Part shown: positions 50,835 through 50,916 of the stretch, in pieces | How positions within the stretch are numbered: the first letter of the stretch is position 1 | How the letters are laid out: each line of letters begins with the position of its first letter | Sequence record: KC295538 | Length of the DNA: 64,000 bases | Origin: Escherichia phage PBECO4 | Strand: one strand, 5' to 3' | Position numbers and translations under genes: made by a program | The notes under the pieces: generated by a model | Databases searched by the model: none | Seen by the model: the letters and a program-made list of their open reading frames with translations, nothing else | Told to the model about the DNA's origin: nothing

Positions 50835-50916
50835 TGGCCCAGGCGACAGGACTCGAACCTGCATACTCCAGTTACTCGATTAACGACGATTTAGAAGACC
50901 GTTGAGATACGCCCGG
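50835..50916 (-). tRNA. tRNA-like element with intact acceptor/T-arm and encoded CCA but non-canonical D region; possible UCU (Arg) anticodon loop
   Basis: Acceptor CCGGGCG/CGCCTGG, T-arm GCAGG-TTCGAGT-CCTGT, stem-loop ACGGT-CUUCUAA-ATCGT; no canonical D-arm can be drawn. Confidence 0.4.

Follow-up and report, generated by a model that had tools for sequence, protein, structure and literature searches.

Organization of the element

The 64,000-nucleotide (nt) stretch of Escherichia phage PBECO4 DNA analyzed here (sequence record KC295538; called the window below) holds a cluster of transfer RNA (tRNA) genes with small open reading frames (ORFs) in between, and our subject is one element of that cluster: an 82-nt, tRNA-like RNA encoded on the minus strand at 50916-50835. 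The minus-strand RNA reads CCGGGCG UAU CUCA ACGGU CUUCUAA AUCGU CGUUAAU CGAG UAACUGGAGUAU GCAGG UUCGAGU CCUGU CGCCUGG G CCA, and its parts are listed in Table 1. It has the 7-base-pair (bp) acceptor stem, discriminator base, and 3′ CCA of a tRNA, a T-arm with a 5-bp stem, a 7-nt loop of the form UUCRANY, and the G53-C61 pair, and an anticodon arm with a 5-bp stem and a 7-nt loop that carries U33 and a purine at position 37. An earlier note, made from the sequence alone, had described the acceptor stem, the T-arm, the encoded CCA, and the loop CUUCUAA with its arginine anticodon UCU, and all of these were recovered; the likeness that it saw to the anticodon arm of the adjacent tRNA-Ser(UGA) also holds, as 16 of 19 positions are the same.

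Between A9 and the anticodon stem there are merely 5 nt (UCUCA), and the D hairpin expected there (positions 9 to 26) is missing; on the other side, exactly 23 nt separate the anticodon stem from the T stem. The earlier note had taken this to mean that the D-arm is missing and that about 23 nt fill the variable region. The count is exact and the usual place of the D hairpin is indeed empty, but a covarying D-stem-like helix and a GGA motif exist, and the 23 nt are better described as a linker, a D-stem strand, and a putative D-loop, as set out below.

Standard tools had difficulty with this arrangement. ARAGORN called six tRNAs in the window (Thr, Asn, Met, Ser-GCU, Ser-UGA, and Gly) and made no call at 50835-50916. 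The tRNA model of Rfam (RF00005) matched 50838-50916 at 29.3 bits, barely above its gathering score of 29, with 4 nt in place of 15 D-arm model positions and a 20-nt insertion in the variable region; this marginal tRNA match was the sole Rfam family found for the element. Neither program drew a standard cloverleaf here, in keeping with the manual fold of the earlier note.

Table 1. Parts of the element and adjoining features of its probable transcription unit, in window coordinates.
Feature	RNA positions	Window coordinates	Strand	Remarks
Acceptor stem, 5′ strand CCGGGCG	1-7	50910..50916	-	pairs 7/7 with 50839-50845, one G-U
U8 A9 U connector	8-10	50907..50909	-	UAU in every member from the 3′-anchored scan
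D-stem-like helix, 5′ strand CUC + A	11-14	50903..50906	-	columns 11-13 pair with 40-42
Anticodon arm ACGGU-CUUCUAA-AUCGU	15-31	50886..50902	-	stem 5/5 paired, one G-U; anticodon UCU (Arg) at 50893-50895
Linker/bulge CGUUAAU	32-38	50879..50885	-	leads from 3′ strand of anticodon stem to 3′ strand of D-stem-like helix
D-stem-like helix, 3′ strand C + GAG	39-42	50875..50878	-	covaries with 50904-50906
D-loop-like segment UAACUGGAGUAU	43-54	50863..50874	-	AANUGGA motif as in phage tRNA-Arg D-loops
T-arm GCAGG-UUCGAGU-CCUGU	55-71	50846..50862	-	stem 5/5 paired, one G-U
Acceptor stem, 3′ strand CGCCUGG, discriminator G, CCA	72-82	50835..50845	-	CCA encoded at 50837-50835
tRNA-Ser(UGA)		50921..51010	-	upstream of the element, 4-nt spacer AAAU; ARAGORN, Rfam 60.1 bits
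Promoter-like site GGGACA-16 nt-TATAAT with TG extension		51021..51048	-	consensus scan, 10/12 matches

A family spread over unrelated phages

The element is not confined to PBECO4. A BLAST search with the 91-nt element gave near-full-length matches in 241 GenBank phage records at 81-100% identity, and the phages that carry it are unrelated: Asteriusvirus, Felixounavirus (SME50, L27), Justusliebigvirus (phi92), Vequintavirinae (W70), Mydovirus (BIS47), T5-like Klebsiella phages (Roth39), and many uncultivated contigs. Three jumbo phages of the genus Asteriusvirus (Salmonella phage SD-1_S14 and Escherichia phages E9.1 and SP27) are 100% identical to the window over the 401 nt compared; 121Q is a close relative.

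We extended this set with two pattern scans of IMG/VR that were anchored on opposite halves of the RNA. The 5′-anchored scan, in which only the 5′ connector and the anticodon loop were fixed, returned 43 distinct members, each with GAGUAA..GGA as its 3′ motif and with U just ahead of the T stem. The 3′-anchored scan, in which only the 3′ D-loop-like motif was fixed and the 5′ half left free, returned members that all had the UAU connector. The conservation of each half is thus shown by the scan that left that half free, and both scans together brought the family to at least 69 distinct members. They fall into three length classes: a main class of 82 nt with a 7-nt linker (CGUUAAY), a short class of 79 nt with a 3-nt linker (AGC, AGU, or GUA) and the tail GGAUCAAU, and a third class of 87 nt in which an added GUC/GAC helix closes the insert. 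As discriminator, G and A prevail, with U or C in a minority of members; CCA is encoded in most. A pattern scan for the second class, GAGTAANNGGATCAAT, was too unspecific and gave almost only chance matches.

We found no match to the element in 5,426 complete E. coli genomes. A pattern scan of bacterial and archaeal genomes consisted mostly of chance matches and is no census for cellular genomes; among the first 120 matches listed there were two true members, both in dense phage-like tRNA arrays. A family-specific covariance model (R1) gave members 42-102 bits and canonical tRNAs, including tRNA-Arg, less than about 37 bits; in the window the element scored 96.1 bits and the canonical tRNAs at most 30.5 bits, which places the window element far above chance.

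Public annotation of these genes varies widely. The element is labeled tRNA-Leu(taa) in 121Q, tRNA-TERM in Salmonella phage 7t3, tRNA-OTHER in Klebsiella phage Roth39, and tRNA-Undet in phage PATM, and in other records it is unannotated, labeled 'hypothetical protein', or overlapped by a protein annotation. At loci L075, L102, L124, and L128, ARAGORN reported the element as a 'tRNA-Arg(tct)' of 91-98 nt by recruiting upstream sequence, and some tRNA-Arg entries with atypical lengths in databases may be wrongly bounded members of this family.

Covariation in four helices

To score pairing, we used an ungapped alignment of 55 distinct 82-nt members that had been picked on acceptor and T-arm complementarity only. 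Under a model of four helices, 94.5% of the cells in this alignment were paired (64.5% in column shuffles), 326 cells were doubly changed (85 in shuffles), and 19 of the 21 pairs showed compensatory double changes; sliding the partners lowered pairing to 33-47%. The acceptor stem had double compensatory changes in all seven pairs with 99.2% of cells paired, and the anticodon stem had compensatory changes in all five with 94.9% paired. In the T stem, 98.9% of cells were paired and three pairs had compensatory changes, while G59, U60, U61, C62, A64, and C67, that is, the G53-C61 pair and the UUC.A residues of the T-loop, were invariant.

The fourth helix is formed by the 3 nt that follow U8-A9-U (CUC) and the 3 nt (GAG) directly 5′ of UAANUGGA. 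It was paired in all 55 sequences (165/165 cells), and because members were chosen on acceptor and T-arm complementarity alone, it had not been selected for. Its strands change together through the combinations CUC/GAG, CAC/GUG, CAG/CUG, CAU/AUG, CGC/GCG, CGG/CCG, CUU/AAG, and UCC/GGA, with 27 doubly changed cells as opposed to 4.2 in shuffles, and pairing fell to 10-40% when one strand was slid. Some members add a fourth pair (e.g., CAUC/GAUG and CUUA/UAAG). Together, these data make us nearly certain that selection maintains the family as a structured RNA with these four helices.

Two other pairings were tried and rejected. A hairpin GUUA/UAAC inside the 23-nt insert showed no covariation, had its outermost pair broken in 12 of the 55 sequences, and is impossible in the short class; in the long class it may form as a second conformer. 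We also set aside a pairing between UCUC and the second GAG, the one in GGAGU: that GAG is absent from the tail of the short class, and covariation favors the first GAG.

Proposed arrangement of the D-arm

The fourth helix occupies a telling position. Its 5′ strand, CUC followed by A, is continuous with the anticodon stem and is a topological match to canonical positions 23-25 and A26; its 3′ strand, C followed by GAG, matches canonical positions 10-12. From there the GAG strand runs into the D-loop-like segment UAANUGGAGUAU, which leads into the T stem. The AANUGGA motif of this segment is common to the D-loops of canonical phage tRNA-Arg, such as AAUUGGAUA in phage ph0011 and CAAAUGGAUAG and CAGUUGGAUAG in others, and the D-loop-like motif was present in all 43 members of the 5′-anchored scan, where it was unconstrained. 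In all three length classes a U lies directly before the T stem, at the place of the pyrimidine at position 48 (Y48). At the other junction, U8 and A9 are canonical residues of the tRNA core.

Judging from this sequence, the element has kept both D-stem and D-loop but has rewired them about the anticodon arm: the putative D-arm is relocated, not lost. We propose that UAACUGGAGUAU corresponds to U13 A14 A15 N16 U17 G18 G19 A20 G U A21 U48 and that the linker CGUUAAU would stand in for the variable-loop connection. The internal block 10-48 would then be circularly permuted, with the normal order 9-[10-21]-[22-43]-[44-48]-49 changed to 9-[22-43]-linker-[10-21]-48-49, and the anticodon arm would be flanked by the two strands of the D-arm, with CUC adjoining its stem on the 5′ side and GAG 7 nt away on the 3′ side. 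The new junctions (9 to 22, 43 to 10, and 21 to 48) would all join residues that are neighbors in the canonical L-shape, so that the D-stem could stack on the anticodon stem and G18-G19 could dock on the T-loop. A normal core, including the U8-A14 and 15-48 pairs, looks sterically possible.

Probable arginine identity and replacement of the canonical gene

The great majority of members have the anticodon UCU, most of them in the loop CUUCUAA, with CCU at loci L128 and L063 and ACG at L088 and L073; all of these are arginine anticodons. The identity set of bacterial arginyl-tRNA synthetase (ArgRS) consists of A20, the main determinant in E. coli, together with C35, U or G at 36, and A or G at 73 (PMC9976931). 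In the element, the anticodon UCU supplies C35 and U36 and the discriminator supplies G73. Every member has an A directly after the GG of the D-loop-like segment, as canonical phage tRNA-Arg D-loops do, and counterparts of all ArgRS identity elements are therefore found in the family if this A is the equivalent of A20.

The gene content of the phages points the same way. Canonical tRNA-Arg(UCU/CCU) was missing from 22 of 23 member loci with 15-28 tRNA genes, arrays in which canonical tRNA-Arg(ACG) is frequent. Moreover, two other phages, Erwinia phage Hallingskeid and the sister Asteriusvirus ph0011, have a canonical tRNA-Arg(UCU) in the slot after tRNA-Ser(UGA) that the element fills in PBECO4. 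The missing canonical gene and this syntenic replacement in Asteriusvirus indicate, as far as gene content goes, that the rewired gene takes over the function of tRNA-Arg(UCU). At L128 and L063, canonical ACG and CCG genes and rewired UCU and CCU genes together give a complete arginine set. On these two uncultivated phage contigs (rewired genes at 12999-13080 and 13348-13429 of L128 and at 8418-8494 and 8991-9069 of L063), the pair that reads AGR is rewired and the pair that reads CGN is canonical. AGA is a rare codon in E. coli; in the window, which is 33.7% G+C, it makes up 27% of arginine codons in long ORFs (8.9 per 1000).

The rewired genes also resemble ordinary phage genes for the same tRNA. 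Comparison of the canonical tRNA-Arg(UCU) of T5 (L393, 77-151) with the rewired gene of phi92 (L008, 1505-1586) showed nearly identical acceptor stems (CGGGGUG paired with CACCUCG in one case and CACCCCG in the other) and identical T-arms (GCAGG-UUCGAAU-CCUGU), which suggests that the rewired family arose from, or recombined with, ordinary phage tRNA-Arg. The anticodon stem is another matter: its likeness to that of tRNA-Ser is not a family trait, and the stem sequence varies freely among relatives.

We propose that the element is probably transcribed together with tRNA-Ser(UGA) and would then be excised by host tRNA-processing enzymes; the promoter-like site directly upstream of tRNA-Ser(UGA) is a consensus match only. 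The RNA would then be charged with arginine by host ArgRS, which is likely because the ArgRS identity set appears to be retained, and would decode AGA and perhaps AGG. In E. coli, an artificial tRNA that has no D-arm is accepted by unadapted histidyl-tRNA synthetase (HisRS), EF-Tu, and ribosomes (PMC11551756). In all, the element is probably a functional, charged, AGA-decoding phage tRNA-Arg(UCU) with a rewired core.

Weighing the interpretation

Several observations weigh against this interpretation. Charging and decoding are deduced, and the three-dimensional fold, the docking on the T-loop, and the equivalence of A20 are read from sequence and established tRNA structure. Part of the apparent invariance of the family was imposed by the search patterns, each half having been checked by the opposite-anchored scan only. 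Folding energies give no help: the proposed fold of the window sequence has -17.7 kcal/mol (-18.8 kcal/mol without the fourth helix) versus a minimum free energy (MFE) of -21.7 kcal/mol; at a single-sequence z-score of -0.38 the sequence folds no more stably than its shuffles, and the MFE structure breaks the T-arm. RNAalifold, run on the 55 sequences, finds three of the stems (acceptor, anticodon, and T) and misses the 3-bp D-like helix, whose support lies in pair counts, not energy; short D-stems often rely on tertiary contacts. Among the loci, L067 holds both a canonical and a rewired UCU gene, L069 carries UCG with a poor D-like helix, and the weaker member-like L060 has a GAU (Ile) anticodon and scores 42.6 bits on the family model. 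The L060 gene (1078-1156 of IMG/VR contig 3300033562_001863) otherwise has the rewired layout, with an acceptor stem, UAU, a CCC...GGG helix that encloses an anticodon arm with the loop CUGAUAA, UAGUCGGU, and a T-arm, and the rewired architecture may extend beyond arginine.

A decoy or regulatory RNA, processed and perhaps charged but not used in decoding, would also explain a non-canonical architecture that ARAGORN misses, a strongly conserved anticodon loop, and a strictly phage-associated distribution, with none in the complete E. coli genomes and with the two bacterial-genome members among the first 120 matches in phage-like arrays. Phage tRNAs are known to counter tRNA-targeting defenses, and such an RNA could serve as a sink for a host anticodon nuclease directed at tRNA-Arg or escape from it, or it could sequester a modification enzyme or ArgRS. 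We regard this as unlikely: a decoy has no need to displace canonical tRNA-Arg(UCU), as happened in 22 of the 23 near-complete arrays and in the slot of the sister phages, the features for charging, EF-Tu binding, and the elbow all appear to be retained, and no protein family consistently adjoins the element in the member neighborhoods that we compared. Still less probable is a tRNA that lacks a D-arm altogether, like mitochondrial tRNA-Ser(AGY), and in which CUC/GAG would extend the anticodon stem, the 3′ segment would be a floppy connector, and flexibility would take the place of the D-loop/T-loop interaction and the canonical L-shape. Its secondary structure is identical to the one that we propose, including the helix that joins the 5′ strand of the anticodon stem without a break, and E. 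coli translation tolerates a D-armless tRNA (PMC11551756). What separates the two is the 3′ segment, which keeps the tRNA-Arg D-loop motif (A14 A15 .. G18 G19 A20 .. A21), has U at the Y48 position in all three length classes, and is followed by a fully canonical T-loop; a passive connector is unlikely because these D-loop, Y48, and T-loop residues are conserved.

Two further explanations seem to us scarcely tenable. The marginal 29.3-bit score against the general tRNA model, the missing ARAGORN call, and a fold energy no better than that of shuffles would suit a decaying copy of tRNA-Arg or tRNA-Ser that lost its D-arm and gained an insertion, the degenerate pseudo-tRNA that the earlier note had offered as one of three options. 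Such a copy would not show compensatory changes in every stem (19/21 pairs in the alignment of 55 members), 69 or more distinct homologues in unrelated phages, an 82-nt layout constant across unrelated phage families, or anticodons that stay within the arginine set, and the divergence of the stems excludes that the homologues are very recent copies of one sequence; this option is refuted. The other explanation follows the GenBank annotations of a tRNA-Leu(UAA) in 121Q or a stop suppressor in 7t3, with GUUAAUC or UUUAAUC as the anticodon loop. GUUAAUC can indeed be drawn as a 7-nt loop closed by CUC/GAG with the UCU hairpin as an intron, but members of the short class, with AGC as linker, have no UUAA segment at all, a pyrimidine would stand at position 37 of that loop, and the hairpin GUUA/UAAN lacks covariation; the supposed intron, moreover, is a covarying 5-bp stem with a canonical loop that includes U33 and A37. 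The second of the earlier note's options, an unusual functional tRNA, is on present sequence evidence the best supported of the three, in view of the anticodons, the ArgRS identity elements, and the replacement of the canonical gene.

Why a phage would carry a rewired tRNA-Arg is a separate question. It is an attractive idea, which we put forward tentatively and think less likely than not, that rewiring evades a host factor that recognizes the core of canonical tRNA-Arg(UCU), such as an anticodon nuclease, another tRNA-targeting defense, or a degradation pathway, while ArgRS, EF-Tu, and the ribosome still accept the RNA. A variant of this idea at the DNA level is possible, in which a homing endonuclease aimed at the canonical gene fails to cut the rewired one. 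If true, evasion would explain both how so odd a design came to be shared by unrelated phage families and why the canonical gene was displaced.

Relation to known tRNAs

The closest comparison is canonical phage tRNA-Arg(UCU), as in T5 (tRNAR), ph0011, and Hallingskeid, which has the same CUUCUAA loop, AANUGGA motif, and kind of T-arm and acceptor, and presumably the same AGA-decoding role. Its D hairpin, however, lies normally between positions 9 and 26 and its variable loop has 5 nt, whereas in the rewired element the anticodon arm is enclosed by the D-stem strands and the T stem follows straight on the D-loop. On the family model, these canonical genes stay below 33 bits. Mammalian mitochondrial tRNA-Ser(AGY) and nematode mitochondrial tRNA-Ser(UCU) likewise have no usual D hairpin, have a helix continuous with the anticodon stem, and carry anticodons that decode AGN (PMC7609411). 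These RNAs are reduced, lack G18G19 and the T-loop/D-loop contact, and work with co-evolved mitochondrial factors; the phage element, in contrast, is at 82 nt longer than a normal tRNA, keeps the equivalent of a D-stem, the GG-A residues, and a canonical T-loop, and would have to work with an unmodified bacterial translation apparatus.

Mini HisT (Edelmann et al. 2024, PMC11551756) is a non-cloverleaf tRNA accepted by the E. coli synthetase, EF-Tu, and ribosome, but it is artificial, its D-arm was deleted, and it needs a pnp mutation for stability, whereas the phage family is natural and widespread, with D-arm elements that appear relocated rather than deleted. Among natural departures from the 7/5 cloverleaf, allo-tRNAs, tRNA-Sec, and tRNA-Pyl, bacterial or phage tRNAs that came to light by mining of metagenomes (PMC5389517, PMC7609411), have 8/4 or 9/3 acceptor/T combinations with four arms in the standard order; the element has the standard 7/5 combination, and it is the connectivity of the arms that is altered. 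Altered segment order is itself not without precedent. In Cyanidioschyzon merolae and other algae, circularly permuted tRNA genes place the 3′ half before the 5′ half, and processing restores the cloverleaf. The order of segments is changed in the element too, but its acceptor ends keep their usual places, the permutation is confined to the internal block 10-48, and there is no sign of processing that restores the canonical order.

According to the 2024 paper, all known bacterial tRNAs are cloverleaves (PMC11551756), and phages go unmentioned in a 2020 review of non-canonical tRNAs (PMC7609411). We found no description of the rewired architecture in a literature search whose coverage excluded most subscription journals, so an earlier description is possible. 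Provisionally, then, a phage arginine tRNA family with a split D-arm, widespread and with a new arm topology, is apparently undescribed.

If the interpretation is correct, this would be the first natural non-cloverleaf elongator tRNA in bacterial translation, and it would mean that the tRNA core can be re-threaded with its helices and the residues of its tertiary contacts kept. If charged and used, it would be a natural exception that functions with the ordinary translation apparatus of E. coli, Salmonella, and Klebsiella; it would test the real requirements of ArgRS, RNase P, EF-Tu, modification enzymes, and the ribosome, and would offer a new scaffold for orthogonal tRNA engineering. The spread of the family over many phage lineages also raises the question of the selective pressure behind the rewired design. 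On the practical side, tRNA finders overlook or mislabel rewired genes, and because such genes are missed or mislabeled, tRNA inventories, arguments from codon usage, and claims of stop suppression in phages are distorted.

Neighboring genes

A number of minor observations concern the surroundings of the element. Small paralogous ORFs of 54-66 amino acids lie scattered among the tRNA genes of the window on the minus strand (50646-50810, 50485-50649, 51615-51815, and 52139-52333) and share the N-terminal motif (K)MTHEEW(M/I); one of them begins 24 nt downstream of the element, and ph0011 and 121Q have 165-nt ORFs at the equivalent place.

In several unrelated phages, HNH endonuclease genes lie directly downstream of the element, at L005 1551-1943 (SME50), at L006 1592-2101 (Roth39), and also at L039, L051, and L147; there is none in the window, and the association is not universal. 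These neighbors hint at spread or protection by way of homing endonucleases.

Near the element in two phages there are further odd tRNA genes, labeled 'tRNA-OTHER' and 'hypothetical tRNA' (L006 114-198 in Roth39 and L008 1249-1335 in phi92), and neither matches the rewired-family model. Finally, a tRNA-Gly(UCC) at 52040-52112 of the window (minus strand) was called by ARAGORN and unlisted by the whole-window Rfam run at gathering threshold; a sensitive rerun gave it 41.7 bits, so that it is an ordinary tRNA dropped by speed filters.

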